DNA of 64,000 nucleotides from an uncultured Candidatus Saccharibacteria bacterium (lineage in GTDB: Bacteria; Patescibacteriota; Minisyncoccia; 2-02-FULL-40-12; GWA2-44-9): assembly GCA_964513645.1 (NCBI GenBank), contig CAZENF010000003.1:127914-191913 (forward strand). Direction: 5' to 3'. Positions 2,297 to 38,432 of the stretch are shown here, piece after piece. The number at the start of each line of letters is the position of its first letter. Positions within the stretch are counted from its first letter, which is position 1. Both the position numbers and the translations under genes were made by a program. Under the pieces are notes generated by a model. It saw only the letters and a program-made list of their open reading frames with translations. It was not told the origin of the DNA and made no database searches.

Positions 2297-2315
2297 TTAT
2301 AACTTGTTGGTTGCT

Positions 2316-2346
2316 CCGCTATCCCGTCAAGGCGGGATTACAGCGG
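2316..2346 (-). other. GC-rich stem-loop in the intergenic gap between the two GH130 genes (possible weak terminator or 5' leader structure)
   Basis: ccgct-atcccg-tcaagg-cgggat-tac-agcgg; no U-tract on the minus-strand transcript, so terminator function is uncertain. Confidence 0.3.
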
Positions 2347-2359
2347 TACGCTTAAGAGT

Positions 2360-3493
2360 CTATCCTTTTAAAGGTGATGTCCTAAGTTTAGGTTCTTTAT
2401 GATTCTTAAGTTCGTTTATAAATTCTTCAAAATCAGTGTGGGCAACACAAACATAACTATCGGCTCCACCGTAATAGACAAGAAGTTTTCTGTTCTTTAC
2501 CACCGCGCCTGAAGCATAGACAACTCCGCCTTTAAAACCGTGATTCTCGTAATGTTCGTTCGGTTCAAGTATCGGAGCTTTTGCCCGGGCGATTATTCTA
2601 GTCGGATCGTCTTGGTCAAGAAGCATTGCTCCGACGCGGTATTTGCCCCAGTCGTTATCCATTGCGTGATAGAACAAGAGCCAGCCATATTTAGTCTTAA
2701 TCGGTACCGGTCCTGCGCCACGTAGCCACCTATCCCAACAGTTTTTTCTGCGTTTTCCGCCGCCGTGGAAACTTTGAATATAATTTGTATCATCGAATTC
2801 CATCGTATCTCGGTACTCAACTTTTATTTCAGGATTTATGCTGTGCAATATCGCGTATTTTCCTTTTATTTTTTCCGGGAATATCAGCCAGTTTTTATGA
2901 ACCTCTCCGGGAGGGGAAAGAAGGATGGGTTCGGTCCAGTTCCACCTCTTATTTCTGAAGTCATCAACTTTTATGGAAGTTAAAGCGACCCGTAAATCTC
3001 CGTTGCAGGCGGTGTAGGTCATAAAAAGAGCATCTTCATTGCCTACTCTGACTATTCTCGGGTCTTCTCCGCCGCCCCATGAGCCGCCGGAAAAATATGA
3101 AAAAACATTATAAGACCTTTTTTGGTTAGGGTGTTCATAGGCCGGTTGAGGGTGGCGCTCTTTTATTCCAAAACCGTCGTCTGATGCGGCATAACCCAGA
3201 CGGGAAACACCGTCAGGTCCTATTGCCCGGTACATAAAATGAACTTTATCATCGAGCTGGACAACTCCTGGATTAAACGTCTGCCAGCCGTCCCATTCAT
3301 TGTTGTGCCGGGGAGAGATTATCGGATTAGAATGCGGTTTCCGAAGGGCTAATTTTGGAAAAGATTTTTTGGCCGGAGATTTTTTCTGTTTTTTTTGGTT
3401 TTTCGGTTTTGAAACCAACTTAACATTTCTCTTTTTTGGAGTTGTCGTTTTTTCTGTTTTTTTTCTGCCAAATCTTGACTTTTTTTGGGCCAT
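2360..3493 (-). CDS. GH130 family glycoside phosphorylase with a lysine-rich, disordered N-terminal tail of about 50 aa
   Basis: GGEDPRIVRVGNEDALFMTYTACNGD and YYGGADSYVCVA GH130 motifs. N-terminus is MAQKKSRFGRKKTEKTTTPKKRNVKLVSKPKNQKKQKKSPAKK. Confidence 0.7.
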   Translation of the reverse strand: MAQKKSRFGRKKTEKTTTPKKRNVKLVSKPKNQKKQKKSPAKKSFPKLALRKPHSNPIISPRHNNEWDGWQTFNPGVVQLDDKVHFMYRAIGPDGVSRLGYAASDDGFGIKERHPQPAYEHPNQKRSYNVFSYFSGGSWGGGEDPRIVRVGNEDALFMTYTACNGDLRVALTSIKVDDFRNKRWNWTEPILLSPPGEVHKNWLIFPEKIKGKYAILHSINPEIKVEYRDTMEFDDTNYIQSFHGGGKRRKNCWDRWLRGAGPVPIKTKYGWLLFYHAMDNDWGKYRVGAMLLDQDDPTRIIARAKAPILEPNEHYENHGFKGGVVYASGAVVKNRKLLVYYGGADSYVCVAHTDFEEFINELKNHKEPKLRTSPLKG

Positions 3494-19383: not shown

Positions 19384-20598
19384 ATGTCTAACACTCATAA
19401 AAAGAAAATAGATGCCGAGTTGTCCAAAGGCCGGAGTGTATCCATAATCAACTTGGTTGCCGCTCTTATCGGCTATGCCAACAGTATTAAGGCGTCTGAT
19501 ATCCATATCGACCCCAAGGAAAAAATGCTAAAAATCAGATTCAGGATCGACGGGGTTCTGAAAGATATTTACGACCTGCCGAAAGAGATACATCCAGAAA
19601 TAATCGGACGCATTAAGATACTTTCAAACTTACGGACCGATGAGCACCAAATGACCCAGGACGGTAGGTTCAGGATAAATGCAGACGATATTGAAAATAT
19701 CGATATCCGGGTTGCTATCAGTCCGGCTTATCATGGTGAAAGTGCGGTTCTTCGTCTTCTGACGGATAAAGCGGATCAGTTCAGTCTGGCCAATCTCGGC
19801 TTCAATGAAGAGAATCAGAGAAAAATTCTCGAAGCCGTCAAAAAACCTTACGGAATGATCCTGGCCACCGGTCCGACGGGCTCGGGCAAAACCACCACTC
19901 TCTATACCATCTTAAAACTTTTAAATACCAGAGATGTCGCCATCATTACTATTGAGGACCCTATCGAATATGCCATCGACAATATCAGACAAATCCCGGT
20001 CAACACCAGGACCGGCCTGACTTTTCATACCGGTTTGCGTTCAATTTTGAGACAGGATCCGGATATTATAATGGTAGGTGAGATACGCGACCAGGAAACT
20101 GCGGGCCTCGCGGTTAATACCGCTTTGACCGGCCATCTTTTACTTTCAACTCTTCACACCAATGATTCGGCCACAACTTTGCCCCGGCTTTTGGATATGA
20201 AGATCGAGCCCTATTTGGTTGCCTCAACGGTCAACATCGCTTTAGGCCAGAGACTTGTCAGAAAGATATGTGAAAATTGCAAAAAGCAATACAAGATGAC
20301 CGAAGCCGAGCTCAAAAGCCTGAACGGTATGGCTGCCAAGCTTACTGAAAAAGATTTCTATAAGGGCGCCGGCTGTGATAAGTGTAATCTGACCGGGTAT
20401 GAGGACCGGGTCGGCATACATGAAGTAATGCTTATCGATGCGGATATCCGGGAAGCTATCCTCAAAAAGGAATCTGCGGATACCATCAAGAAAATCGCGA
20501 TAAAAAATGGTATGAAAACGATGATCGAGGACGGTTTTGAAAAGGCCGCCCTGGGCATTACAACCATTGCCGAAGTTTTAAGGGTTATTCACGAGTAA
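19384..20598 (+). CDS. Type IV pilus / competence pseudopilus assembly ATPase (PilB/GspE/ComGA family, core domains only)
   Basis: Walker A ATGPTGSGKTTTLYT, Asp box, His box and tetracysteine motif CENCKK...CDKCNLTGY. At 404 aa it lacks the long N-terminal domains of PilB/GspE. Confidence 0.85.
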   Translation: MSNTHKKKIDAELSKGRSVSIINLVAALIGYANSIKASDIHIDPKEKMLKIRFRIDGVLKDIYDLPKEIHPEIIGRIKILSNLRTDEHQMTQDGRFRINADDIENIDIRVAISPAYHGESAVLRLLTDKADQFSLANLGFNEENQRKILEAVKKPYGMILATGPTGSGKTTTLYTILKLLNTRDVAIITIEDPIEYAIDNIRQIPVNTRTGLTFHTGLRSILRQDPDIIMVGEIRDQETAGLAVNTALTGHLLLSTLHTNDSATTLPRLLDMKIEPYLVASTVNIALGQRLVRKICENCKKQYKMTEAELKSLNGMAAKLTEKDFYKGAGCDKCNLTGYEDRVGIHEVMLIDADIREAILKKESADTIKKIAIKNGMKTMIEDGFEKAALGITTIAEVLRVIHE

Positions 20599-20607
20599 TT
20601 ATGTACT

Positions 20608-21678
20608 ATGGAACTGACTACCTATTTCAAAAACAGATTGCCGCTTAAGGATCAGGTTGCTTTTACCAAGCGCCTTGCTTTTCTGGTCCGGGCCGATGTA
20701 CCGATACTTGAAAGTTTGAGGATGATGCATAAACAGACCCGTTCCAAGTCTCGGGCTGAGATAATCGACCACATCATCCAGGATGTTTCAAACGGCCAGT
20801 ATCTTGCCGACAGTTTGGCCAAGTTCCGGAATACTTTCGGTGATTTTGCCATCAATATCATCCGGGTCGGTGAAGAAGGCGGAATTCTCGACCAAAATCT
20901 CGAGTACCTGGCCGAAGAACTCTACAAAAGACAAGAGCTTAAGAAAAAAATAATCGGCGCTCTCATTTATCCGGCTTTTATAACCATCTCGACTTTGGGT
21001 GTCAGTGGTTTCGTTACGGCCTATGTTTTTCCGAAAATAATGCCGATATTCAAAAGTATGGGCACTACTCTGCCGGTTACTACTCGCGCCCTGATATTTG
21101 TAAGCGGCTTCATTATCCATTATGGTATTTTAACTCTGTTCGGTCTGGTCATCGCCGGATTCATATGCTTTATGGCTTATAAAAAAAATAAGGCCTTTAA
21201 TTATGCGGCCAGTCACGCCATGATGAAAATGCCTGTCTGGGGAAACTTGATCCAAAACTACTATATGGCCAATTTTGCCCGGACTTTGGGACTTCTTTTA
21301 AACTGTCAGATGAATATAATTACCGCTGCCAGGATAACCGCCGATTCTACCCCGAACCTTATATATAAACACAGAATCTATGAACTGGCCGACGAAATCT
21401 CACGCGGTCGTAAAATATCACAATACCTCGAAACACAGGCAAACCTTTTTCCCGAAATGGTTCCCCAGATGATCGCCATTGGCGAAACGACCGGCAGTTT
21501 GGGTAACACTTTGATCTATCTGAGTGATTACTACGAGAAAGAGGTTAACGAAATAACTAAGAATCTCTCAAGTTCAATTGAACCCATCCTTCTGGTTTGT
21601 GTCGGGGTTATCGTCGGATTCATTGCGGTTTCAGTCATTACTCCTATCTATCAGCTCACGCAAAATATCCATCCGTAA
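20608..21678 (+). CDS. Type IV pilus / T2SS platform protein (PilC/GspF/ComGB family)
   Basis: 356 aa, two GspF-type repeats, polytopic; directly follows the ATPase gene. Confidence 0.8.
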   Translation: MELTTYFKNRLPLKDQVAFTKRLAFLVRADVPILESLRMMHKQTRSKSRAEIIDHIIQDVSNGQYLADSLAKFRNTFGDFAINIIRVGEEGGILDQNLEYLAEELYKRQELKKKIIGALIYPAFITISTLGVSGFVTAYVFPKIMPIFKSMGTTLPVTTRALIFVSGFIIHYGILTLFGLVIAGFICFMAYKKNKAFNYAASHAMMKMPVWGNLIQNYYMANFARTLGLLLNCQMNIITAARITADSTPNLIYKHRIYELADEISRGRKISQYLETQANLFPEMVPQMIAIGETTGSLGNTLIYLSDYYEKEVNEITKNLSSSIEPILLVCVGVIVGFIAVSVITPIYQLTQNIHP

Positions 21679-21688
21679 AGTTCAGTCC

Positions 21689-22117
21689 ATGAATGAAAAA
21701 GGTTTTACATTTATTGAAACTCTGGTCGTTGTTGTTATCTTTTCTTTTATTCTGGGTCTCGGATTTTTTATGAGCCAGGATCTTTATCGTTCCACTTCCT
21801 TTAATTCTGACACCCAGGCCATTGCTGCCGCTTTTGAGAGGGCACGGACCCAATCTTTGGACAATATCGACCAGAAACCTCACGGCGTTGTCTTAACCTC
21901 CGGCAATTATGTTATCTTCGAGGGCGCGGTTTACAATCCAAGCGATCCAAATAATTACTCTATTTCCGGCAATCCGAATTTTACTTTTACCGGTCCAACC
22001 CAGATTGTTTTTACCCAGCTTACGGGACAATCAAATGCCAGCGGCAGTTTAGTCATTCTTGACGGTTCCAAATCAGCTACCATATCTTTTAATTTTGAAG
22101 GAAGGATAAACTGGTAA
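21689..22117 (+). CDS. Prepilin-type N-terminal cleavage/methylation domain pseudopilin
   Basis: MNEKGFTFIETLVVVVIFSFILG: class III signal G-F-T-F-I-E. The track ORF 21578 start is an upstream in-frame extension overlapping pilC. Confidence 0.75.
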   Translation: MNEKGFTFIETLVVVVIFSFILGLGFFMSQDLYRSTSFNSDTQAIAAAFERARTQSLDNIDQKPHGVVLTSGNYVIFEGAVYNPSDPNNYSISGNPNFTFTGPTQIVFTQLTGQSNASGSLVILDGSKSATISFNFEGRINW

Positions 22118-23620
22118 ATGAAAAAATATTCAAAACAAAAAGGTTTCAGCACCATCGAGATCTCAGTCGCTCTCCTCATCATCACAGTAGGTTTGACCGC
22201 GGCTACTTTAGTCATTTTTGGCGGTCGGTCTTTTTCCTCGGATTCCGGACTCGATAACGAAGCATTATATAAAGCTCAGAGACAAATAGAGGATGCGAGG
22301 GCCTCGGCCCGGGCAAGTTTCGGTTCGGTCATTTCAAGCTCGAGCAACGACGGAATATATTTTAAAGAGGTCGTGGTTTCATCCGGTAGCCAGCCCTACA
22401 GCAAGAACGTCATTAGCCGGATTAGCTGGACGGCTCCTGGTCCGAGGTCTGAAAAGATCGAACTATCGACAACTTTAAGCGATTGGAAAAACGCTCTGGT
22501 CAAAAATCAGCCGTGTCTGACGCCTTTGTCGGGCGATTGGCAGCATCCGCAGATGGCTTTCTATGAATTCGGCAAAGATCTTCTTGGCGACTCTTCAAGC
22601 GGTTACCCTTTGACCGGGATTACCGTCCTGAACTCTAAGTTGTATGTTACTGTCAACAACACCAACGGTAATAATTTTCCGAGTCTTTTCATCTTTGATG
22701 TCTCAAAACCGGGCGTTAAACCGGCTCTTTTAACCAGTGCCGATAATGATCCGGGGGTAAAATCGGGCCTGAATGCCATAACGGTCAACGGCAATTATGC
22801 TTATGTCGCAAACGCCAACAATCCAAATTTTTCGACTTGCGCTACTTGCGGACAATTGCAAATATTCGACATCAGTAAAACGCCGCCCCAGGTCATAGAT
22901 ACTTTCAAGGTCCCCGGGGTGACCGGTAAGAACGGACAATCTATCGGTACCAGTATTTTTTATAAGGGCGGGATAGTTTATCTGGGTTTGGCGAAAACTC
23001 CCGATGGAGCAACGGGGGACACCGAATTTAATTTAATAGATGTTGGTGGCGGAGGACACGGCGGTAGTCCGACAAGCCCGGTTTTTCTCGGCGGCTACCA
23101 GGTCGGTAACGGGGTCAATGCGATATATGCTAAAGGCAAATATGCCTACATTGCAACGCCCAACAGCGAAAATATGACCATCTTGGATGTCAGCGATCCG
23201 ACCCACCCGACGAGAGCTGGCGGCTATTCTCCGGGAATCGGTTCCAACGGCGAGAGTTTGTTTGTCACCGGTTCTACCGTCTATCTTGGTCGGACCTTCG
23301 GCACCAACGAATTTTATATTTTAAATGTCCAGAATCCGGCGAGCATCACTGTTCTGGGTTCCAAAGATATCGGCAGCGGCAGCAGTACGAGTATTAACGG
23401 CGTCGTTTTGCGGAGCAATCTTGCGTTTTTGATAACCAATACCCAGTTCCAGATCTGGAATGTGGCAAATCCGGCGAGCATCACCCAGTGGGCGACACCT
23501 TTGAGTTTGCCGGCCGGCAGCGGCACGACCATCAGTTGTAGTACTGACAATTCCATCTATGTCGGCTCGCTACCTTCAAATGATAAAGGTTTTATCTCGA
23601 TAATTACCCCTGGTCCGTAA
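22118..23620 (+). CDS. Large pilin-like protein: prepilin N-terminus fused to an LVIVD-repeat beta-propeller domain
   Basis: MKKYSKQKGFSTIEISVALLIITVGL (prepilin signal). At least four blades of the LVIVD repeat pattern (NGNYAYVANA...LQIFDISKTPPQV; KGKYAYIATPNSENMTILDVSDPTHPT; STVYLGRT...FYILNVQNPASITVLG; SNLAFLITNTQFQIWNVANPASITQW). Confidence 0.65.
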   Translation: MKKYSKQKGFSTIEISVALLIITVGLTAATLVIFGGRSFSSDSGLDNEALYKAQRQIEDARASARASFGSVISSSSNDGIYFKEVVVSSGSQPYSKNVISRISWTAPGPRSEKIELSTTLSDWKNALVKNQPCLTPLSGDWQHPQMAFYEFGKDLLGDSSSGYPLTGITVLNSKLYVTVNNTNGNNFPSLFIFDVSKPGVKPALLTSADNDPGVKSGLNAITVNGNYAYVANANNPNFSTCATCGQLQIFDISKTPPQVIDTFKVPGVTGKNGQSIGTSIFYKGGIVYLGLAKTPDGATGDTEFNLIDVGGGGHGGSPTSPVFLGGYQVGNGVNAIYAKGKYAYIATPNSENMTILDVSDPTHPTRAGGYSPGIGSNGESLFVTGSTVYLGRTFGTNEFYILNVQNPASITVLGSKDIGSGSSTSINGVVLRSNLAFLITNTQFQIWNVANPASITQWATPLSLPAGSGTTISCSTDNSIYVGSLPSNDKGFISIITPGP

Positions 23621-23623
23621 ACT

Positions 23624-24091
23624 ATGAAAAAAAACAACGGCTTCAGCCTCATCGAAGTTTTAATATATATCAGCTTGATGTCACTTATCCTGACCGGGGC
23701 TTTGACCTTGTCTTACCAGCTCATCAGTTCAGCCGGTACTTCAAATAAAAATATCATAATTCTGGATGAAGCGAATTTTATGCTCCGAAAAATAAACTGG
23801 GCGATGGACGGGGTGGCGACAATCAATTCACCGGCTGTCGGGGCGAGCGGCCAGACTCTGTCTGTAACCAAAACCGGCGCCGCGAATCCGATAATTTTTG
23901 ATCTTAGTTCCGGAAATTTGAGAATAACCGAGAGCGGGGGAGCAGCGGTAATCCTCAACAGCTCGAGAGTTGTTGTCGCCGGTTTGAATTTTAAGCATTT
24001 TGCCGCCTCGGGCAACAAACCCGAATCGGTCAAAGCAAGTTTTACAGTCAACGGTACTGCGTTCGAAACTACAAAATATTTAAGAAAATAA
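23624..24091 (+). CDS. Prepilin-type pseudopilin
   Basis: MKKNNGFSLIEVLIYISLMSLILTG. Confidence 0.7.
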   Translation: MKKNNGFSLIEVLIYISLMSLILTGALTLSYQLISSAGTSNKNIIILDEANFMLRKINWAMDGVATINSPAVGASGQTLSVTKTGAANPIIFDLSSGNLRITESGGAAVILNSSRVVVAGLNFKHFAASGNKPESVKASFTVNGTAFETTKYLRK

Positions 24092-24614: not shown

Positions 24615-25061
24615 ATGACTAAAAATCCCATAAAATACTGGCTCTTTGGCGTGGTCTGTTTAGCCGTTCTTGCAGGTCTGACTTATCACGAAAAAACCGC
24701 CTTGGCGGAATGGATGTACAGGTATGATCTTCTGCCCAAGCCGGAATTTTTTACCGAATTATATTTTAATACTTATCCCAAATTCAAGGATATCGTCACC
24801 AATGGACAGCAGATATCATTTTCATTTACCATTGCCAACCATGAGGAATCGGAGCAGACCTATACTTACGAGGTCTGGTTCAGGGCCAGCGCCAACAATG
24901 AGATAAAGATAGCCAAAGGAGATGCGGATATTTCGCCCGGAGAATCCCAAACCATAAAGATCAATTATACCTTTGAACAGTTCGGATTATCAAAAAGTTC
25001 CATTGTTGTCAGAATACCTGAATCCGGAAGGGAGATACATTTCTTTCTGGGCCCGGTTTAA
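24615..25061 (+). CDS. Hypothetical membrane-anchored protein (predicted beta-rich ectodomain)
   Basis: N-terminal TM (YWLFGVVCLAVLAGL); preceded by a TTGACA-17-TATTAT promoter at about 24538-24566. Confidence 0.35.
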   Translation: MTKNPIKYWLFGVVCLAVLAGLTYHEKTALAEWMYRYDLLPKPEFFTELYFNTYPKFKDIVTNGQQISFSFTIANHEESEQTYTYEVWFRASANNEIKIAKGDADISPGESQTIKINYTFEQFGLSKSSIVVRIPESGREIHFFLGPV

Positions 25062-25071
25062 ATAAAAAATA

Positions 25072-26925
25072 ATGGCGTCAATCAAAAGAAAAAAAATAAC
25101 CGCCCTTATTCCTTGCTATAACGAAGCCGGAGGTATTGCTGCGGTCATCAATAATTTTCCGTTTGATAAAATTGATTATCAGGGTTTTGACCTCGAGATA
25201 GTTGTTATCGATAACAATTCGAGCGATTCGACTCCGAATATCGCACGTTCGCTCGGCGTAACCGTTCTCCATGAACCGATAAAAGGCAAAGGCAATGCGA
25301 TGCGCCGGGGTTTTAATTACGCCTTATCAAATCACGCCGATTATATCGTCATGCTCGATGGCGACGATACTTACCGTTCAAAAGAAATTTTAAGACTTAT
25401 CGAACCTTTGGATTCCGGTTTTTGCGACGTGGTTGTCGGCTCACGTTTGGGAGGACGTATTCATGATGGCTCGATGACGACTTTTAACAGGATGGGCAAC
25501 TGGGTGTTCTCTCATCTTGTCCGATATTTTTATCAGGTTAACGTAACCGATGTTCTCACCGGTTATTTTGCCTGGACCAAAAAAGCTTTGAAACATCTCG
25601 CCCCGAATCTCAAATCGCAGGGTTTTGCCATTGAAATGGAAATGGTCACTAAAATGGCGCGTCTCGGAGAGGAAATTTACTCTGTACCCATCTCATACGA
25701 TAAACGTGCCGGTGAGACCAACCTTAATCCAGTCTATGACGGTGCCAGGATACTTTGGATGTTTGCCAAAAATCTTGTTTGGAATGCTCCGTTGCAGTCG
25801 GTTCAGCGTATCGTTTTTGTTTCCGATGCCATCATGCCTTATAACAAAGGTGGGAAAGAGCGTCGTCTCTATGAAATAACCAAACGTCTCGTCAGGGAAG
25901 GACGCGAGGTACATATCTATACTATGAAATGGTGGGACGGGCCGTTCATCATTGAACACAACGGAGTATATTTCCATGCCATCTCGAAACTATATCCTTT
26001 ATACAACGGAGGCCACCGCTCGATAAAACAAGCTATCATGTTCGGTCTGGCCACTTTCAAACTTATCTTCGTTGATTTCGATGTTCTCGATGTCGACCAT
26101 ATGCCGTTCTTCCCGCTTTTCAGTGCGAGAATAGTAACCTGGTTAAAGGGTAAAAAACTTCAGGCCACCTGGCATGAGGTCTGGGGCTATAACTACTGGA
26201 TGCACTATTTAAAGGGCCTGAGTGGATTTATCGGATACATTATAGAGAGAACATCTCTTTTAATGCCGGATACAATTATTTCAAACTCGGAACACACTAC
26301 CGGCCGTCTTAAATCGGCGGGATTTAACGGTATCATCCAAACCATTCCCTTAGGAGTGGATGTTCCGAGAATAAAATCAGTCAAGAAAGCAAGCGACAAA
26401 AGCGATGTCATCTTTGTCGGGCGTTTGCTCGAGAATAAGAATGCGGATCTTCTGGTCAAAGCCATTGCTCTCGTTAAATACATCTATCCGAATGTCATCT
26501 GTAAGATCGTCGGTGACGGACCGGAAAAAGATAATATCGAAGGTCTTATCCGCAGACTTGGTCTCGAACAAAATATCCACATCACGTCTTTTGTTGCGGA
26601 AAGCGACGAGCTTTATTCTTTGATGAAGGCCTCTAAGATGCTGGTCTTGCCCTCTATCCGGGAAGGTTTTGGTCTGGTTGTGGTTGAGGCAAATGCGGCC
26701 GGCATCCCTGTTATCACCACATCTCACGAGGATAACGCTGCCCGGCACCTCATTCAGGAAGGCAGCAACGGTCTTCTGGCCGATGCAAGCATGAGAAGTA
26801 TTGCTGAAAAAATAATCAAAATAATGAGGAATGAAAATAAAATGCAGCCCAAAAAAGATATAGAGAAATATGACTGGCCTGTCGTGGTCCAACGAGTGGA
26901 ACAGGTTATAGGGCCGATGCCGTAA
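25072..26925 (+). CDS. Bifunctional glycosyltransferase: N-terminal GT2 (Dpm1-like) fused to C-terminal GT4 (group 1)
   Basis: N-terminal ALIPCYNEAGGI...VVIDNNSSDST...MLDGDDTY (GT-A DXD). C-terminal VGRLLENKNADLL...PSIREGFGLVVVEANAAGIPVITT (GT4 E-x7-E region). Confidence 0.75.
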   Translation: MASIKRKKITALIPCYNEAGGIAAVINNFPFDKIDYQGFDLEIVVIDNNSSDSTPNIARSLGVTVLHEPIKGKGNAMRRGFNYALSNHADYIVMLDGDDTYRSKEILRLIEPLDSGFCDVVVGSRLGGRIHDGSMTTFNRMGNWVFSHLVRYFYQVNVTDVLTGYFAWTKKALKHLAPNLKSQGFAIEMEMVTKMARLGEEIYSVPISYDKRAGETNLNPVYDGARILWMFAKNLVWNAPLQSVQRIVFVSDAIMPYNKGGKERRLYEITKRLVREGREVHIYTMKWWDGPFIIEHNGVYFHAISKLYPLYNGGHRSIKQAIMFGLATFKLIFVDFDVLDVDHMPFFPLFSARIVTWLKGKKLQATWHEVWGYNYWMHYLKGLSGFIGYIIERTSLLMPDTIISNSEHTTGRLKSAGFNGIIQTIPLGVDVPRIKSVKKASDKSDVIFVGRLLENKNADLLVKAIALVKYIYPNVICKIVGDGPEKDNIEGLIRRLGLEQNIHITSFVAESDELYSLMKASKMLVLPSIREGFGLVVVEANAAGIPVITTSHEDNAARHLIQEGSNGLLADASMRSIAEKIIKIMRNENKMQPKKDIEKYDWPVVVQRVEQVIGPMP

Positions 26926-26926
26926 A

Positions 26927-27625
26927 ATGAAAAAAATAAAAGTTACAACCAGCTGGGATGACGGCCATATGCTCGACATCCGTATCGCTAAACTCTTGAG
27001 AAAATACAACCTTAAGGGGACGTTTTTTATTTCTCCCAAGGACAGGGAGCTTTCTCCGACCGAACGTTTGACTGGCGGGGAGATAAAAATGCTGTCCAAA
27101 GAATTTGAGATCGGCGCACATACGATGACGCATCCGCTTTTAACCCGCGTTGAGGACCATATCGCCTATAAGGAAATCCTTGATTCCAAGAATTATCTTG
27201 AAAAGATCCTCCACAAACCGGTTAGAAGTTTTTGTTATCCCGGAGGTTTTTATAAAAAGAAACACCAACTTATCCTAAAAAAGCTCGGCTTTAAGTTAAG
27301 CAGGACAGTCAGCAGATTCGAGACTGAAACTGGTTCGAATTTGTTTGCTGTCCCGACAACTGTCCACGCCTACCGTCATTGGTCGGATATCGTTCCGATA
27401 TTTAAAAATGCCGGCTTCAGAAAATTCCTTTCCCGATATCTGAATTGGGATGAACTGGCCATATCCATGTTCGACAAAATAGCCGAGACCGGAGGCGTTT
27501 TTCATCTATGGGGTCATTCCTGGGAAATAGAAAAAAACAATGACTGGGAAAGATTGGAACGAGTTTTTAAACATATTTCAAATCACGCTAACGCCAAATA
27601 TATAACCAATGGAGACGTCGCCTAA
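26927..27625 (+). CDS. Polysaccharide deacetylase (CE4 / NodB homology domain)
   Basis: TTSWDDGHMLDIRIAKLLRKYNLKGTFFI (TFDDG-like motif 1), GAHTMTHP (motif 2 His); starts 2 nt after the upstream gene. Confidence 0.65.
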   Translation: MKKIKVTTSWDDGHMLDIRIAKLLRKYNLKGTFFISPKDRELSPTERLTGGEIKMLSKEFEIGAHTMTHPLLTRVEDHIAYKEILDSKNYLEKILHKPVRSFCYPGGFYKKKHQLILKKLGFKLSRTVSRFETETGSNLFAVPTTVHAYRHWSDIVPIFKNAGFRKFLSRYLNWDELAISMFDKIAETGGVFHLWGHSWEIEKNNDWERLERVFKHISNHANAKYITNGDVA

Positions 27626-30600
27626 AACAATTCTGCTTGTCGCTCCGTATTTTCCTCCTGACGGCGGCGGTTTAGAACGCTATGCCTTCGAGATCGCCAA
27701 GCGTCTCGCTAAAGGCTACAACTGGCGCATCGTCGTGATGGTGTCCGGCAAAAAATATGGTGAGGATACTAAAGAAGAATCAAACGGCCTGACGATATAC
27801 CGATTAGGATATAGTCTCAAAATTTCTAATACTCCATTAGGATTTTTGTGGTTTGGTAAAATTCGCAAAATTTTAAAGACTGAAAAACCAGATATCATAA
27901 ACATCCACACTCCTGTTCCGGGTATCGGAGATATAACTTCTTTTTTAGCGGGCAGCATCCCGACCGTGGTTACATACCATACCGGCAGCATGCTTAAGAG
28001 TAAGATCTTGCCGGATATTGCTGTCCGGTTATATGAGTACGGGCCTATGAGATTACTTCTGAACCAGGCCAAACATATAATTTGTTCGTCTGACTTTGTC
28101 CGTTTTAATTTTCTTGGGCGCTATATTCATAAAAGCACTACTATCACTCCTGCGGTCGATGTAGATATATTTAAGCCAGATGTCTCAAAAAAAGCTAAAG
28201 ACCCGACTGTATTGTTTGTCGCAGGTCTTGGCCATTCAGAACAGTACAAAGGTCTTGCTACTCTTTTGAATGCCATTTCGATGGTCAAAAATGATATTTC
28301 GAATATCCGACTTATTGTGGCCGGAGACGGGGATATGCGCTCAGAATACGAATCCCAAGCGGAAAAATTAGGAATCGGAAGCTCTGTAGATTTCAGAGGT
28401 AAATTAAGCAATGGCAAATTAGTTGCGGCTTATCAGGAAGCTCACATTTTTGTCTTACCGACATCAAATGACAGTTTTCCTTTAACCATCCTCGAAGCTA
28501 TGGCAACAGAATTGCCTGTGGTCTCAACCAGGATCGGTAGCATACCTTCTATAATTGAAAGCGGTCAAGACGGCTTCTTAATTAACGGATTTACTGCAGA
28601 GGCCGTAGCTTCTGATATATCGAAGATAATTAAAGACGAAATCGTTAAATTGAATTTTGGTCTTGCTGGTCGTAAAAAAGTATTAGATAAGTTTAATTGG
28701 AAATTGCGTGCTGATCAATATCAAAACGTTCTGTCATCTATTTCAGAATTTAAATTAAGGACAGTTCGAAAAATAGCTATTGTAACTCCATATTTTTATC
28801 CCAAGATTGGCGGACTTGAAAATTATGCTCTTGAAATGGGCAGAGCTTTAAGGCGCGACGGTAACGATATTTTTGTCATTACCAGTAATCATTTAAACAA
28901 AAAATGGCAATACGAAGAAATAGAAGGTATGAAGATTTATCGCATGCCAAGATTGTTTAAGATATCGAACACGCCGGTAAATCCTTTATGGTATTTATGG
29001 GTCTGGCGTATTTTAAGGCTTGAAAGACCAGATCTTATCAATGCCCATACCCCTGTTCCATTTATTGCCGATGTGACCGAAAGAGTAAGGGGCAATATAC
29101 CCCTTGTTTTAAATTATCACAATGATCTTGTGAAAAGTAATTTGTTTGCAGATCTGCTTTGTCGCATATCCTATATCTTTATGATAAACAAAACACTGCG
29201 TGATGCAGATAAGATAATAGCGACATCTCAATATTACGCTTCGCAATCCAGTTATTTAAGGCCGCTAATCAGTAAAATTGATTTTGTTCCGCCCGGAGTA
29301 GATATTAATAGATATAAACTCAATCTTGATGCACGCTATTTTAAAGAACGTTTTAAAGATTTTCGCACTGTGCTTTTTGTTGGTCAATTGGATAAAACCC
29401 ACAGACACAAAGGTCTGGACGATATAATAAAAGCCGTTGCCGAACTGAGGTCGTCGATAAAAAATATTAAACTTGTTGTTGTGGGTAAGGGTAATAATAT
29501 TGATTCATATAAAAAATATGCTGCTTCTCTTGGTATTGAAAATCAAGTAAGTTTCGAGGGGTTTGTTGAAGATGATGTATTGCCACAATATTATGCGGGA
29601 GCGGACGTTTTGGTCTTGCCGTCCAAAGATAAGTCAGAAGGTTTCGGGATGGTTATAACTGAGGCAGCTGCCTGCGGTACGCCAGCTGTTGCAAGTAGAA
29701 TCGGAGGAATCCCGGCAGCTCTAATAGACGGAGAGACCGGTATCCTGGTTTCACCTAATAATGTTTTACAACTTTCTGCGGCCATGAAAAAAATACTGGA
29801 CAATGGAACTTTTGCCAAAAAGTTAGGTGATAATGCCAGTTTGCGTATTAAAAAAGAGTTTGCATTATCGGTAGTAACAAGCAAATTTGTGGATATAATT
29901 TGTAAGATCGAGAAGAAAATTTCTATACTGCAAGTAGTGCCTTATTATCCACCCCACATAGGAGGAATGGAATTAAGGGTCAGAGATTTATCTACAAACT
30001 TGGTTAAGGAAAAAGTTGATGTTAATGTCATCACTTCTAACATTGGCGCTCAAAGCGGTTATTCTGAACAGAACGGTGTCAAGGTTAACTATCTGCCAGC
30101 ATTCAATTTTGCTAATACTCCATTTACCCCGGGACTTATATGGTACTTGCTTACTGTAAAAAAGCCCGATGTGTTTCACATACACATATCTCAAGCTTTT
30201 TTTCCGGAAATAGCTGCTATTGTTGCGAAAATAAGAGGTATTCCATACATAACCCATATACGTTTACTAGTTGAAGCATCAGGAGTTTTCGGAATTCTTC
30301 TGCCGATATACAGATATTTTGTATTAAAGCCGGTACTTCTTGGCTCAAAATACGTCATAACTTTGACAGAAGACGATAAGGAAATAGTGAATAATAAATT
30401 TAAGGTCCCGTTACCACGGATAAAAGTAATTCCAAACGCTACAGATTTTGGAATCATTGACTCACCAAGAACTATAACCAAACCTCTCAATATCCTTGCT
30501 GTTGGACGTATATCTCTTCAAAAAAATTATTCATTCATGTTGCAGGTTATGAGTGAATTCAAGAAAATATATGGCCCTGATTTTAAGTTAAAAATTGTTG

Positions 30601-31025
30601 GTACTGGTGACGGTTTATATAACCTTAAAAACGAGGCTGAAAAATTAAATCTCAAAAATAATATTCTATTCTTAGACGAAAAAATAGGTTCAGAACTGGA
30701 AGACATATACAGCAAATCTGATATTTTTCTGCATACATCTACTAAAGAAGGTTTTGGTACTGTTTTTATTGAAGCCATGACCAAGGGCTTGCCAGTGGTA
30801 GCTTCAAATATCCCTGGTTCACGTAATGTGATTATGAATGGAAGGAACGGCTTGTTAAGTGATTTTTCCTCTGAGGATATGGCTAAGAAGCTCGAACTTT
30901 TGTGCAGGGATCAATCCTTATACCAAAAAATCAGTGAAAATAATATTTCAGATGTTAAAAAATACAATTGGGACAATGTAGCGACTGATACGATCAACAC
31001 TTACTTACATGCAAGAAATTTTTAA
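27609..31025 (+). CDS. Triple GT4 glycosyltransferase: three complete tandem GT4 modules in one 1138-aa polypeptide
   Basis: Module starts: TILLVAPYFPPDGGGLERYAFEIA; KIAIVTPYFYPKIGGLENYALEMGRAL; ISILQVVPYYPPHIGGMELRVRDLS. Three C-terminal nucleotide-sugar motifs (DSFPLTILEAMATELPVVST; SEGFGMVITEAAACGTPAVAS; KEGFGTVFIEAMTKGLPVVAS). Confidence 0.75.
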   Translation: METSPKTILLVAPYFPPDGGGLERYAFEIAKRLAKGYNWRIVVMVSGKKYGEDTKEESNGLTIYRLGYSLKISNTPLGFLWFGKIRKILKTEKPDIINIHTPVPGIGDITSFLAGSIPTVVTYHTGSMLKSKILPDIAVRLYEYGPMRLLLNQAKHIICSSDFVRFNFLGRYIHKSTTITPAVDVDIFKPDVSKKAKDPTVLFVAGLGHSEQYKGLATLLNAISMVKNDISNIRLIVAGDGDMRSEYESQAEKLGIGSSVDFRGKLSNGKLVAAYQEAHIFVLPTSNDSFPLTILEAMATELPVVSTRIGSIPSIIESGQDGFLINGFTAEAVASDISKIIKDEIVKLNFGLAGRKKVLDKFNWKLRADQYQNVLSSISEFKLRTVRKIAIVTPYFYPKIGGLENYALEMGRALRRDGNDIFVITSNHLNKKWQYEEIEGMKIYRMPRLFKISNTPVNPLWYLWVWRILRLERPDLINAHTPVPFIADVTERVRGNIPLVLNYHNDLVKSNLFADLLCRISYIFMINKTLRDADKIIATSQYYASQSSYLRPLISKIDFVPPGVDINRYKLNLDARYFKERFKDFRTVLFVGQLDKTHRHKGLDDIIKAVAELRSSIKNIKLVVVGKGNNIDSYKKYAASLGIENQVSFEGFVEDDVLPQYYAGADVLVLPSKDKSEGFGMVITEAAACGTPAVASRIGGIPAALIDGETGILVSPNNVLQLSAAMKKILDNGTFAKKLGDNASLRIKKEFALSVVTSKFVDIICKIEKKISILQVVPYYPPHIGGMELRVRDLSTNLVKEKVDVNVITSNIGAQSGYSEQNGVKVNYLPAFNFANTPFTPGLIWYLLTVKKPDVFHIHISQAFFPEIAAIVAKIRGIPYITHIRLLVEASGVFGILLPIYRYFVLKPVLLGSKYVITLTEDDKEIVNNKFKVPLPRIKVIPNATDFGIIDSPRTITKPLNILAVGRISLQKNYSFMLQVMSEFKKIYGPDFKLKIVGTGDGLYNLKNEAEKLNLKNNILFLDEKIGSELEDIYSKSDIFLHTSTKEGFGTVFIEAMTKGLPVVASNIPGSRNVIMNGRNGLLSDFSSEDMAKKLELLCRDQSLYQKISENNISDVKKYNWDNVATDTINTYLHARNF

Positions 31026-32931
31026 TAAAAACACATTAATAGGGCAAATAAGCGCATACTATCCGCCCCACATAGGCGGAATTGAAAATGTGGTTGAGGC
31101 TGTTAGTAGGGAATTATCTGTGATGGGTCGGAATGTACAGGTGATTACAGCATCTAACTCACACTTATCAGAAAAAAACCATCCTCGTATAATCGGGTTG
31201 AAATATTTTGAAATTGCTCATGTACCTTTTACTCCCGGGCTTCTTTGGTATCTTTTGATGTTGCCCAAAAATTCTTTAATGCATCTTCATATTGCTCATG
31301 CATTTTTTCCAGAGCAAGTATTTATTGCTTCAAAAATAAGGAAGATACCATATATAGTTCATTTTCATCTCGACGTAGGACCATCGACTTTTTTAGGACC
31401 CCTATTCTTGTTATATAAAAAGATTGTCTGGGGGCCTGTTTTGCGCAGCGCAAGTAAGGTTATCGTTTTATCAAATGAACAATTAAGTTTGGTTTCCAGC
31501 AAGTATGGGGTTAAGAAAGAAAATATCGTCATTGTTTCTAATGGTGTGGGCCAAGAATTTATTAAGATCGGTAAGGAGCGTAAATCGTTTAGCAAAACTC
31601 TGCGTCTTCTGTCCGTCGGTCGTTTAGCAATACAAAAACGTCCGGAACGGCTATTGTATGCCATGTTGTCGTTGAATGTTCCTGTACATATGACTTTTGT
31701 TGGGGACGGTGAAGATAGAGAAAAACTTGAAACATTGGCCCGTGAATTGAAACTGACCAATGTCACTTTTGTCGGAAAAAAATTCGGAGACGAATTACTT
31801 GAGTATTACCGCAATTCAGATGTCTTTTTAATATCTTCAGATGAAGAGGGGATGCCCTTAGTGGTACTCGAAGCCATGGCTTCCGGTCTGCCTGTTATTG
31901 GTACGGATGTCATCGGTACACGTGAACTTGTAAAAGATACAGGGTTGCTTGTAGCCGAGCCATACCTCCAGAATTTTACATATGCCATAAGTAAACTTCA
32001 TTATAATCCAGAATTAGTAAAAGAATTGTCACAAAAAAGTGTTGAGAAAGCCAGTTCTTATACTTGGGCCAGTGCGGTTGAAAAAATAACTAAAATTTAT
32101 ACCGATATTTTAAAAAATGATGTTGTCTCACAAAATCGTAACCGGGAAATTGAGTTCTGGGACAATGTTAGCAAGAGAGATAAAGAATGGATTGTCAGTA
32201 CACCAAAGGAAGAAATCGAACAATTTATAGTTGATAAAATACGGAGAGGAAATACCAGATGGTGGGAGCCGATGATTGGCAAGTTAGAGGGCAAAAAAAT
32301 ATTAGACATAGGGTGTGGTACAACTTTTTTTGCGACATACTGGTCGTTGACGGGTAATGATTCTTTTGGTTCCGACTATTCACCAGAAACTATCAAAACA
32401 AATAATCTTTTACACGAAAAATTAGGATTGAAAAAGAATTTTTATGTTGCTTCGTCCGAGAAAATAGATGCAGCGGATAACTCTTTGGATGTAGTGCATA
32501 TGCGTTGGGTAATACATCATATACCACCAGAATTACAAAATAGCTCTATGTATGAGATAAAACGAGTTCTTAAACCTGGCGGAAAACTTATCGTATTTGA
32601 AACCAATTATGCCTACCCATTTAGATGGATAGTTCAGACACCGATATTGCGTAGTTTAAATTTTTTAAGACATTACGCTATAAATAAAGGTTGGTTAGAC
32701 CCAGAAGAAAAAGCTCTAACCAACGAAGGATATATAAATCTTATTGAGAATAATGGCTTTAAGATAAATATTGTTGACCACGATTTTACGTTCTTCTACT
32801 ACCCAGTAAGTTTATTGACCCGAAATGAATTCATAAGAAACTTAGTTCGGGAGTTTGATAATACAATCAGATCAATTATATCGGATAGGTTTAGTAAGGA
32901 TATTAAAATAATTGCAGAAAAATATGAATGA
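31009..32931 (+). CDS. GT4 glycosyltransferase fused to a C-terminal class I SAM-dependent methyltransferase
   Basis: N-terminal ISAYYPPHIGGIENVV...EGMPLVVLEAMASGLPVIGT. C-terminal ILDIGCGTTFFATYW (MTase motif I), LDVVHMRWVIHHI, LKPGGKLIVFE (motif post-II/III). Overlaps upstream by 17 nt. Confidence 0.75.
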   Translation: MQEIFNKNTLIGQISAYYPPHIGGIENVVEAVSRELSVMGRNVQVITASNSHLSEKNHPRIIGLKYFEIAHVPFTPGLLWYLLMLPKNSLMHLHIAHAFFPEQVFIASKIRKIPYIVHFHLDVGPSTFLGPLFLLYKKIVWGPVLRSASKVIVLSNEQLSLVSSKYGVKKENIVIVSNGVGQEFIKIGKERKSFSKTLRLLSVGRLAIQKRPERLLYAMLSLNVPVHMTFVGDGEDREKLETLARELKLTNVTFVGKKFGDELLEYYRNSDVFLISSDEEGMPLVVLEAMASGLPVIGTDVIGTRELVKDTGLLVAEPYLQNFTYAISKLHYNPELVKELSQKSVEKASSYTWASAVEKITKIYTDILKNDVVSQNRNREIEFWDNVSKRDKEWIVSTPKEEIEQFIVDKIRRGNTRWWEPMIGKLEGKKILDIGCGTTFFATYWSLTGNDSFGSDYSPETIKTNNLLHEKLGLKKNFYVASSEKIDAADNSLDVVHMRWVIHHIPPELQNSSMYEIKRVLKPGGKLIVFETNYAYPFRWIVQTPILRSLNFLRHYAINKGWLDPEEKALTNEGYINLIENNGFKINIVDHDFTFFYYPVSLLTRNEFIRNLVREFDNTIRSIISDRFSKDIKIIAEKYE

Positions 32932-35303
32932 ATAAAGTGCGTATTAAAATCTCGACAATATTAATTGTATCCATAGTTTGGTGGGCGGTCTTTGTGTGCC
33001 TGTCTTTGCTTCAGTTTAATCCGTTTGAAATTCTGAACATTACGGGTTTTCTTTTTCTAATTATTATTCCAGGCCTCTTAACCGTTTTGACTTTGGGTTT
33101 GGCCAATCTTGAATTCTGGGCAGCATCTGCTTTTGTTGTGGCATTCAGTATTTTTGAACTGATGTTAACCGCTCTTCTTGGCAACACCTTTTTGCCTTAT
33201 ATTGGTTTTCCACATCCGTTCCTGCCGAATATACTTATGACCCAGGTCTCGGTCCTGTTCTGGGTCCTGATTGGCATAAATTTATACGACGGAAATAAAT
33301 TTGAATTTAATATCCCGCGCTATTTTATTTTCAAAGACTTTAAGAATTTCTGCTTTGCCACTCTTTCGGTCTTGTTTGTTGTCTTAAGTATTTTCGGCGC
33401 TATACGGCTGAATAACGGGGCAAGTAATATTCTGACTATGATTATGCTCGGTTCTATGGGTCTTTATTTTGCTGTGATGCTTTTTAATCAGGATAAGTTC
33501 GAGGAGAACACGATACTTACAGGTTTGTATTTTATTGCTTTAGCTCTTCTTTTAATGACGAGTCTGCGTGGTTGGTATATTACCGGGCATGATATTCAGT
33601 CTGAATTCAAGGTTTTTCAGTTGCTTAAGGAAGATGCAGTCTGGAATATTGCGGCCTATCGTGATGCATACAATGCCTGTTTAAGCATTACTATTCTTCC
33701 GTCGATATTTTCATTCTTGCTCCGCATTCCTGACCAATACATATATAAACTTCTTTTCCAGATAATATTTGCCTTTTCTGTACCGGTTATATACATGACT
33801 GGACGCAAATGGGCAGGTCCGAGAATTTCTCTCCTTGGAATTTTATATTTCATCGGATTTCCAACATTTTTCACTGATATGCCGTTTCTTATTCGCCAGG
33901 AGACCGCCTTCCTGTTCTATGGGCTTATGCTCTATTCAATATTTGCAGCTGATCTTGAAATATTTACACGCCGGATGCTTTTTATCCTTATGGGCTTCGG
34001 TGTAATATTTTCCCACTACTCTACTACATATACGGTTTTGATGATATTTGGTTTAGCTGTTTTTTTCCGGCCAATACTTATCAAACTATTTGAAAGATTT
34101 GAAGACTCATATCTTGTCAAAAAATCAGGACTTGCGTCTTTGCTTGCTTATAACAGTCATGAAAAAGGTAAGATTACTATGGGCATGATTTTTCTCTTAC
34201 TTGCGGCGAGCTTTTTCTGGACGTCCAGTATCACTCAGACAGGAGGAGGTTTATCCAAAGTAATAAATGAGACAGTCTCAGCAGTGCAAAACGGTTTTGG
34301 AGAGGGGAACCGCTCGATTGATATAAATACGCTTCTTAGTTTCAGCCATCCTGACCAAAACCAAGAAATGCAGGGGTTTATCAAAAATTCAATAGGTAAG
34401 ATACGTGCCCAAGCAAATCCGGGCATATTTTATCCCGAAAAATCTTATAGCCAATACTCATTCTCCGCCTTACCGCAGGAATTAGTGCCTTTAACAGGCG
34501 GAGCTCAATGGCTGATTAATCACGGTATAAACATCGGAAAAATTATGACACTGTTTGGTTCCATTCTCGGAAAGCTGATAGAGGTTCTGGCTCCTTTGGG
34601 TATGATACATGTTTTGTTCAAAAAGAAGGTAGTTACATACATAGATGATGAGATCTATCTTATATCATTTTTCTCATTTGTGTTTATTCTTATGAACATC
34701 GTTTTGCCGGTGCTCTCGACTGAATACGGAATATTCCGTGCAATGCAGCAAGCAATGTTCATTATTGCCCCTATTATAGTATTGGGCAGTATGTCGTTGG
34801 GGGATATTTTGGCCAAAATTATCAGACATTCTAAAACAGCAATTATTTTTGCCACGCTTATGGCTCTGGTATTTTTCACTTATTCCACCTCTTTTGACCG
34901 CGAACTTATCGGCGGCTATTCAGCGGTTCTCCATTTAAGTAATTACGGTACCTATTATGACAACTATCTTATTCATGATGTTGAGGTTGTTGGTGTAGAA
35001 TGGATAACCAATATAGCTACAGCCAACCCGGAGAACATCAACGGAGTCCGGCTCTCGGTTCAAACCGACAGATATTCACGGGCAAAATTCGCATCATTAA
35101 CTACCTTGTCGACGGACAATGATATTTTTCCTGGGGTAGTTAGGAAATCGGCTTATGTATTCTTAAACCTGGCTAACGTAACCAAACAGCGTGCCGTAGC
35201 GTTCTATAATGGCGACCCTATTGCTTATGCTTATCCTGTAAAATTTTTGGATGAAAATAAAAACCTTATCTATGACAGCAACGGAGCCAGGGTTTATAAA
35301 TAA
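32928..35303 (+). CDS. Large polytopic membrane protein (putative GT-C-type glycosyltransferase, polymerase or YfhO-like)
   Basis: 791 aa. More than 12 predicted TM helices in two blocks separated by a predicted extracytoplasmic region, plus a 150-aa C-terminal soluble domain. No signature motif recognised. Overlaps upstream by 4 nt. Confidence 0.4.
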   Translation: MNKVRIKISTILIVSIVWWAVFVCLSLLQFNPFEILNITGFLFLIIIPGLLTVLTLGLANLEFWAASAFVVAFSIFELMLTALLGNTFLPYIGFPHPFLPNILMTQVSVLFWVLIGINLYDGNKFEFNIPRYFIFKDFKNFCFATLSVLFVVLSIFGAIRLNNGASNILTMIMLGSMGLYFAVMLFNQDKFEENTILTGLYFIALALLLMTSLRGWYITGHDIQSEFKVFQLLKEDAVWNIAAYRDAYNACLSITILPSIFSFLLRIPDQYIYKLLFQIIFAFSVPVIYMTGRKWAGPRISLLGILYFIGFPTFFTDMPFLIRQETAFLFYGLMLYSIFAADLEIFTRRMLFILMGFGVIFSHYSTTYTVLMIFGLAVFFRPILIKLFERFEDSYLVKKSGLASLLAYNSHEKGKITMGMIFLLLAASFFWTSSITQTGGGLSKVINETVSAVQNGFGEGNRSIDINTLLSFSHPDQNQEMQGFIKNSIGKIRAQANPGIFYPEKSYSQYSFSALPQELVPLTGGAQWLINHGINIGKIMTLFGSILGKLIEVLAPLGMIHVLFKKKVVTYIDDEIYLISFFSFVFILMNIVLPVLSTEYGIFRAMQQAMFIIAPIIVLGSMSLGDILAKIIRHSKTAIIFATLMALVFFTYSTSFDRELIGGYSAVLHLSNYGTYYDNYLIHDVEVVGVEWITNIATANPENINGVRLSVQTDRYSRAKFASLTTLSTDNDIFPGVVRKSAYVFLNLANVTKQRAVAFYNGDPIAYAYPVKFLDENKNLIYDSNGARVYK

Positions 35304-35304
35304 T

Positions 35305-38424: not shown

Positions 38425-38432
38425 ACTGAACC

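Follow-up and report, generated by a model that had tools for sequence, protein, structure and literature searches.

Does the genome of an uncultured Candidatus Saccharibacteria bacterium encode a single polypeptide with three complete glycosyltransferases (GTs), and which glycan would such a protein help to build? This question is raised by an open reading frame (ORF) in a 64,000-nucleotide stretch of the assembly GCA_964513645.1 (contig CAZENF010000003.1, forward strand, positions 127,914 to 191,913), which was analysed at its full length and is hereafter called the window. The ORF is unbroken from its ATG start and encodes 1138 amino acids, for which an earlier note, made from the sequence alone, had claimed three tandem modules of glycosyltransferase family 4 (GT4). 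The ORF call and a Pfam search both agreed with this claim. The N-terminal GT4 domains PF13439 and PF13579 each matched three stretches of the protein, and so did the C-terminal GT4 domains PF00534 (E = 1.9e-118) and PF13692 (E = 2.2e-100), a triple match that is far above chance. We consider it fairly probable that this protein is a three-GT4 fusion within a patescibacterial operon, making three successive cytoplasmic additions to a lipid-linked glycan.

Each module, within the limits set by us (Table 1), begins with its own PY(F/Y)xPxxGG motif, starting at residues 13, 394, and 778 as the note had described. Its second signature, an E-x7-E nucleotide-sugar motif at the C-terminal side of every module, was located in module 2 (residues 677–685) and module 3 (1047–1055), while module 1 has D-x7-E (DSFPLTILE, 288–296) in its place. 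D288 is aligned with the E of the NESFG segment of Corynebacterium MshA, which is the first E of the motif, and D is the majority residue at this position among 114 modules of the clade to which module 1 belongs (clade A, see below). The D-x7-E form is therefore a clade trait and not a sign of decay. The pairing of an N- and a C-terminal Rossmann-like domain, which characterizes the GT4/GT-B enzymes of CAZy, was identified in all three modules by Pfam and by an AlphaFold2 model calculated from a 43-row alignment. This model consists of three complete two-Rossmann GT-B units with a mean predicted local distance difference test (pLDDT) score of 89.9 and a predicted template modelling (pTM) score of 0.69, and pLDDT fell below 50 only at residues 381–384 inside the first linker. 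A Foldseek search against the PDB matched the modules to the single-module GT4 enzymes BshA (5d00), MshA (3c4q), PimA (2gej), PimB' (3oka), PglA (8dqd), PglH/WlaC (6eji), and WaaG (8b5q), with E-values of 1e-14 to 1e-20 and target TM-scores of 0.75–0.84, a structural similarity expected of GT4 members. These solved enzymes share with the modules the GT-B fold, the G-rich N-terminal loop, the K-G motif, and the (D/E)-x7-E motif, whereas the sequence identity is only 18–24%, and three such units are fused here; no three-GT4 protein was present among the Foldseek matches in the PDB. The sole hydrophobic match in the protein corresponds to a core helix of module 3 and no membrane segment was predicted, so that the protein is probably cytoplasmic.

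The relationship between the modules was examined using 245 GT4 modules cut from the 120 best homologues together with the window's two other GT4 domains. At the protein level, modules 1 and 2 share 34% identity, modules 1 and 3 share 24%, and modules 2 and 3 share 26%, and DNA likeness between them is confined to a 50-nucleotide stretch of 76% identity over a conserved motif. This pairwise alignment, which the earlier note had proposed, bears out its statement that the modules are mutually divergent. Four recurrent clades were recognized: A (module 1-like), B with a looser B' (module 2-like), C, and D (module 3-like), of which clade C represents the type of GT4 domain encoded by the next gene downstream in the window. 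A neighbour-joining tree separated a superclade of A and B/B' from a superclade of C and D, and located module 1 within A, module 2 within a 14-member B clade, and module 3 within a D clade of 5–7 members. Each module is 45–61% identical to orthologues elsewhere, compared with 24–34% to its neighbours in the same protein. Free-standing orthologues were found for module 1 (P0179, 388 amino acids, 51% identity), for module 2 (P0189, 389 amino acids, 52%, and about two dozen others), and for module 3 (P0237, 375 amino acids, 45%; P0191, 457 amino acids, 47%). A recent tandem triplication, against which the note had also argued, was ruled out, because there is no meaningful DNA similarity and the modules, which fall into different ancient paralogue clades, are closer to foreign orthologues than to one another. 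As judged from their sequences, the paralogues are ancient, and the modules are three different enzymes rather than copies.

The same modules occur in various fused and split states in other genomes. While a word-indexed search detected the identical protein only once (NCBI, on a 264,921-bp contig), the search for homologous triple-GT4 proteins suggested by the note identified P0002 (1134 amino acids, 49% identity), P0004 (1124 amino acids, 38%), and P0005 (1123 amino acids, 36%), covering 99% of the query. P0005 is HJQ08689.1, named "glycosyltransferase family 4 protein" of Candidatus Saccharimonadales. The word-indexed search also returned a very large set of di-GT4 proteins of approximately 740–770 amino acids from Patescibacteria, and the names of the homologues include Saccharimonadales, Paceibacterota, and Kaiserbacteria. 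When 1.84 billion cluster representatives were searched exhaustively, 1768 proteins reached E ≤ 1e-30, and additional three-GT4 proteins came to light (P0152, 1125 amino acids; P0203, 1082 amino acids). The architectures among the top matches were A-C (62), A-B' (28), A-B (6), A-D (4), A-B-C (3), and a few B-C or B-D, and the window protein alone among them exhibited A-B-D. Larger fusions were also found: P0022 (1387 amino acids) and P0045 (1375 amino acids) have the architecture GT4-deacetylase-A-B' or -C, P0130 (1905 amino acids) is A-B'-C-DUF2206, and P0131 (1545 amino acids) is A-D-DUF2206. P0322 and P0329 (approximately 1158 amino acids) are likewise among the very large relatives that join two or three cytoplasmic GT4 modules to DUF2206 or to a CE4 deacetylase. 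The presence of GT-B and GT-C enzymes on one polypeptide, as in the GT4-DUF2206 fusions, is an unusual architecture in itself. The claim that triple-GT4 proteins are very unusual was hence overstated, since three-GT4 and larger fusions of up to 1905 residues are already present in public databases, di-GT4 fusions are common in Patescibacteria, and WbdA, which is discussed below, is a characterized three-module precedent.

Homology to P0002, P0004, and P0005 is collinear over the full length, and their junctions lie at the same alignment positions as those of the window protein, with linkers of 5–10 residues. These A-B-C fusions resemble the window protein in the A and B modules, in the junctions, and in the operon, with a deacetylase upstream and DUF2206 downstream. 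The counterpart of module 2 is orthologous in P0002 and of the less specific B' type in P0004 and P0005. The third position is occupied by clade D in the window and by clade C in the relatives, whose third module is 48% identical to the window's downstream GT4 domain and only 29–34% to module 3; in the window, clade C is kept separate and joined to a methyltransferase. Split states were also observed: P0003 (A-B, 57% identity) is followed by a separate 375-residue GT4 gene with an 8-nucleotide overlap, and P0007 (A-B) is followed, after a 9-nucleotide gap, by a 367-residue clade-C GT4 and then by DUF2206. The window order A-B-D / C-methyltransferase / DUF2206 can thus be set against A-B-C / DUF2206, A-B / C / DUF2206, and A-D / DUF2206 in the relatives. 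Contigs carrying P0002 come from two JGI samples and one Logan sample, those carrying P0005 from an ENA/NCBI assembly and a Logan assembly, and those carrying P0004 from two ENA assemblies. In the window protein, both linkers lack a stop codon and lack any ATG, GTG, or TTG upstream of the first β-strand of the next module, and the reading frame is backed by homologous alignment up to each side of both 5–8-residue linkers. By these sequence comparisons the fusion of three GT4 enzymes is genuine, and the note's argument against an assembly artefact holds, in that three-module homologues with the same junctions come from independent samples and assemblers. The fusion most likely arose through the loss of stop and start signals between adjacent operon genes. 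The A-B-D protein is rare but not new in kind, and on this evidence it belongs to an uncharacterized, database-visible family of patescibacterial multi-GT4 proteins. Multi-module glycosyltransferases are already established; this one differs from the three-module members P0002, P0004, and P0005 in having a third module of clade D where they have clade C.

The coordinates of the features are listed in Table 1.

Table 1. Features of the glycan operon, of the tri-modular GT4 protein, and of other loci in the 64,000-nucleotide window (aa, amino acids)
Feature	Position	Strand	Remarks
Small DUF1616-like protein	24615..25061	+	first operon gene; one transmembrane segment
AglJ-like GT2 + GT4 (clade U) fusion	25072..26925	+	candidate polyprenyl-phosphate hexosyltransferase
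CE4/NodB-type polysaccharide deacetylase (PF01522)	26927..27625	+	no transmembrane segment; 17-nt overlap with triple-GT4 start
Tri-modular GT4 ORF, 1138 aa	27609..31025	+	no transmembrane segment, no signal-like N-terminus
Module 1, aa 1-383, clade A	27609..28757	+	N motif PYFPPDGGG 27645-27671; D-x7-E 28470-28496
Linker 1, aa ~380-387, EFKLRTVR	28746..28769	+	no stop/start codon; holds the segment of pLDDT <50
Module 2, aa 384-765, clade B	28758..29903	+	N motif 28788-28814; E-x7-E 29637-29663
Linker 2, aa 767-771, IEKKI	29907..29921	+	last module-2 helix to first module-3 strand; no stop/start codon
Module 3, aa 766-1138, clade D (sister to clade C)	29904..31025	+	N motif 29940-29966; E-x7-E 30747-30773
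GT4 (clade C) + S-adenosylmethionine (SAM) methyltransferase fusion	31009..32931	+	17-nt overlap with triple-GT4 stop
DUF2206 polytopic membrane protein	32928..35303	+	predicted GT-C fold glycosyltransferase
Polysaccharide pyruvyl transferase (WcaK/CsaB-like, aa 32-366) + Wzx-like Polysacc_synt flippase, 1057 aa	35251..38424	+	
Soluble protein, 401 aa	38433..39638	+	last operon gene
Type IV pilus cluster	19384..24091	+	directly upstream of the glycan operon
Two PMT-family protein O-mannosyltransferases, 481 and 459 aa	55198..60434	-	second PMT gene 59055-60434
GT2, 239 aa	58339..59058		overlaps start of second PMT gene
Unannotated ORF, 558 aa	56674..58350	+	between the GT2 and the first PMT gene
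Two GH130 genes	377..3493	-	beta-1,4-mannooligosaccharide phosphorylase

The genes from 24615 to approximately 39638 lie on one strand with overlaps of at most 53 nucleotides or gaps of at most 10 nucleotides, and the locus is conserved in every relative examined. The order GT2(+GT4)–CE4 deacetylase–multi-GT4–DUF2206, which spans 24615–35303 in the window, was found at L001–L007, L011, and L012. The GT2 domain gave its best NCBIfam match to AglJ (189 bits, under the cut-off of 325 bits), dolichyl-phosphate hexose transferase, and PpgS, and in L001 and L013 the GT2 and GT4 parts of this fusion are encoded separately. The deacetylase is joined to the N-terminus of module A in many other genomes. 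The GT4-methyltransferase gene was found only in the window when compared with the loci of the relatives. On the Logan contig L016, an alternative call starts this gene 27 codons later (613 amino acids), which would cost the first strand and the G-rich loop. For the DUF2206 protein, the best fold match was PglB and several homologues carry precomputed PMT_2 matches, while no sequence match was obtained to any solved GT-C protein or other PDB entry, and no literature on DUF2206 was found in the library searched. That literature also held nothing relevant on glycan loci of Saccharibacteria or on proteins with three or tandem GT4 modules. The flippase part of the pyruvyl transferase fusion contains 13 hydrophobic segments, and in L004 the two parts are separate genes on opposite strands. 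A glycoside-hydrolase-like gene (GH5/GH39-like) is also among the operon members. The last operon gene encodes a protein with no Pfam or NCBIfam match that carries SGGVDS, a motif characteristic of PP-loop ATP pyrophosphatases, and it may be a sugar-modifying amidotransferase-like enzyme. The GC content at third codon positions (GC3) is approximately 0.48 for the first three operon genes, 0.31–0.33 for modules 2 and 3, the clade-C GT4, and the methyltransferase (28758–32931), and approximately 0.40 for DUF2206. This trough suggests an exchanged or variable cassette between conserved ends. No tRNA or Rfam feature was detected in the window, and promoter and terminator scans remained at background level and were not used.

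A pathway can be proposed from this gene content by analogy with what is established for Wzx-dependent and Agl/Pgl-type pathways. The GT2 enzyme would prime polyprenyl phosphate with a hexose or N-acetylhexosamine, and the deacetylase would trim a sugar of an early intermediate; it is placed early and in the cytoplasm because it lacks a transmembrane segment and precedes module A in a single polypeptide elsewhere. Modules A, B, and D would then add three successive sugars on the cytoplasmic face. Since GT4 enzymes are retaining glycosyltransferases, these linkages are probably α. From the module sequences we reasonably infer that all three transfers are performed by one polypeptide, and the fusion would fix the stoichiometry and proximity of the consecutive steps. 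The clade-C GT4-methyltransferase and the pyruvyl transferase would finish the glycan, Wzx would flip it, and the DUF2206 protein, as a GT-C enzyme, would hand it to an envelope acceptor. The order A, B, D/C, GT-C of the genes and modules may mirror the order of the reactions, and the glycan would be diversified by differences between lineages in how many and which modules stand between A and DUF2206.

Several points weigh against this pathway. The Arg of the usual GR...K motif is missing from modules 1 and 2, and in view of this and of the D-x7-E form of module 1 it is not certain that every module is active. The NCBIfam matches of the GT4 modules were all under the curated cut-offs, with no equivalog-level match for donor or acceptor, and the pTM score of the AlphaFold2 model makes the mutual placement of the modules uncertain. 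A canonical priming phosphoglycosyltransferase of the WecA/WbaP type was not seen in the window. The WWDxG motif of oligosaccharyltransferases is not evident by eye in DUF2206. Only one assembly is known to contain the A-B-D combination and with it the B|D junction. The window is matched at 100% identity by Logan contigs from SRR12313479/80 at 24953–27767, 30291–38774, and 30418–34701, and none of the contigs retrieved covers 27768–30290, the span that contains both junctions. The downstream breaks of these contigs differ between runs (30291 versus 30418) and the upstream break at 27767 occurs in one run only, which suggests thin coverage more than a fixed structural difference.

A wider reading, which we hold only tentatively, is that the operon represents an undescribed, Patescibacteria-wide lipid-linked pathway of archaeal flavour, comprising AglJ-like priming, cytoplasmic de-N-acetylation, shufflable GT4 enzymes, Wzx, and en bloc transfer by DUF2206. 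The same enzyme classes as in the archaeal Agl and bacterial Pgl systems are gathered in one operon, namely an AglJ-like GT2, GT4 enzymes, a Wzx-like flippase, and a GT-C protein, although the GT2 scores under the AglJ cut-off and DUF2206 has neither an evident WWDxG motif nor a sequence match to the solved GT-C enzymes. If this reading is true, DUF2206 would represent a new family of GT-C enzymes, which might act as oligosaccharyltransferases on surface proteins such as pilins or S-layer proteins, and the swapping, fusing, and splitting of modules between the conserved ends A and DUF2206, with the GC3 trough at 28.7–32.9 kb as its trace here, would be a means by which episymbionts diversify their surface glycans. 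The type IV pilus cluster encodes a PilB-like T2SSE protein, T2SSF, two N_methyl pilin-like genes, and an LVIVD-repeat protein, and pilins are a conceivable acceptor of the glycan.

Among the other explanations, the one that survives best is the synthesis of a glycolipid or lipoglycan anchor, either by PimA/PimB-like transfer or by formation of an N-acetylglucosamine-lipid followed by deacetylation, as in glycosylphosphatidylinositol, mycothiol, and glucosaminyl-phosphatidylglycerol. PimA, PimB', MshA, and BshA are among the top sequence and structure matches, the NCBIfam model GlcN_PG_synth matches as well, and the deacetylase adjoins module A, to which it is fused in some genomes. These matches, however, reflect generic GT4 similarity and all lie under the curated cut-offs. 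MshB and BshB are LmbE-type enzymes, whereas the deacetylase matches CE4/NodB (PF01522) with no LmbE-type match in the Pfam and NCBIfam results. The AglJ-like GT2, the Wzx flippase, and the GT-C enzyme of the operon point instead to a polyprenyl-linked route, and we consider the glycolipid explanation unlikely.

It is also rather improbable that the protein is a WbdA-like polymerase, whose modules would act repeatedly, one per linkage, on a trisaccharide repeat, with the adjacent methyltransferase terminating the chain. According to PMC11231755 and PMC7685785, the polymerase of Escherichia coli O8 and Klebsiella pneumoniae O5 has three glycosyltransferase modules, one for each linkage, while that of O9a has two GT4 modules; the O8 chains end by methylation, and the methyl-modifying activity is encoded nearby. 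The window protein is like WbdA, as it is described there, in having several glycosyltransferase modules in one polypeptide and a methyltransferase close by, here a SAM methyltransferase domain in the next gene. One of the O8 linkages is β, and therefore presumably not all WbdA modules are retaining GT4 enzymes. WbdA operates in an ABC-transporter-dependent polymerase–terminator pathway of Gram-negative lipopolysaccharide synthesis, whereas no ABC transporter domain (Wzm/Wzt) was detected in any window ORF scanned and the operon has a Wzx-like flippase and a GT-C enzyme instead. The methyltransferase is joined to a GT4 domain rather than to a WbdD-like kinase/coiled-coil protein, Pfam showing only GT4 and methyltransferase in this gene; a coiled coil was not searched for. 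Moreover, the number of modules at the same position of the locus varies from one to three in the relatives, as would be expected of a variable oligosaccharide more than of a fixed repeat.

Another possibility is that only one or two modules are catalytic and the others are degenerate units serving as a scaffold or for acceptor binding. This is consistent with the D-x7-E of module 1, with the absence of the canonical Arg from modules 1 and 2, and with a truncated middle module of approximately 150–250 residues in the relatives P0040 and P0136. Yet the deviations are clade-wide, being seen across the 114 A modules, and are shared by free-standing A and B enzymes, which argues for functional variants. 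The replacement of E by D is conservative and lies at the position aligned to the active-site E of MshA, and all three modules are complete GT-B units modelled at high confidence. A partly dead protein is hence improbable.

An assembly or sequencing artefact, which would have turned two or three adjacent GT4 genes into one by a missed stop, an indel, or a chimeric strain join, is very improbable despite the single A-B-D assembly, the break of the Logan contigs of the same study within the gene, the occurrence of the third GT4 as a separate gene in close relatives, and the fall of GC3 inside the gene (0.38 in module 1, 0.31–0.32 in modules 2 and 3), because both flanks of the uncovered span are 100% identical to independent contigs, fused homologues of other samples show matching junction positions and linker lengths, dozens of di-GT4 proteins share the A|B junction, and, with the frame continuous across each linker, an artefact would take a pair of compensating errors only a few codons apart together with the loss of a stop codon, a ribosome-binding site, and a start codon.

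The preferred reading of a three-GT4 fusion acting on a lipid-linked glycan has implications beyond this protein. For glycobiology, the family offers a kind of "Rosetta stone", since the same GT4 modules are found free, paired, tripled, and as parts of fusions with a deacetylase or with a GT-C membrane enzyme, and these free and fused states tie anonymous genes into one pathway and hint at the order of its reactions. For Patescibacteria, it draws attention to a conserved operon for an envelope glycan, in which the terminal enzyme, DUF2206, is predicted to be of the GT-C type; these episymbionts are reduced and mostly uncultured, and their envelope is considered relevant to host attachment. A multi-module GT4 protein alone would hardly surprise a specialist, given the similar database entries and the precedent of WbdA. 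The stronger lead is the whole operon, chiefly DUF2206 as a putative, so far unrecognized GT-C family that is gene-fused to cytoplasmic GT4 partners.

Two further loci of the window carry genes of glycan metabolism. The start of the second of the two PMT genes is overlapped by the 239-residue GT2, and the unannotated 558-residue ORF lies between this GT2 and the first PMT gene. A GT2 next to PMT genes is the classic arrangement of a polyprenyl-phosphate-mannose synthase with its PMT enzyme, and a second, separate glycosylation system is therefore present. Close to the start of the window lie the two GH130 genes, the first of which (639 amino acids), a further fusion of tandem domains, holds two GH130 stretches in a single ORF.

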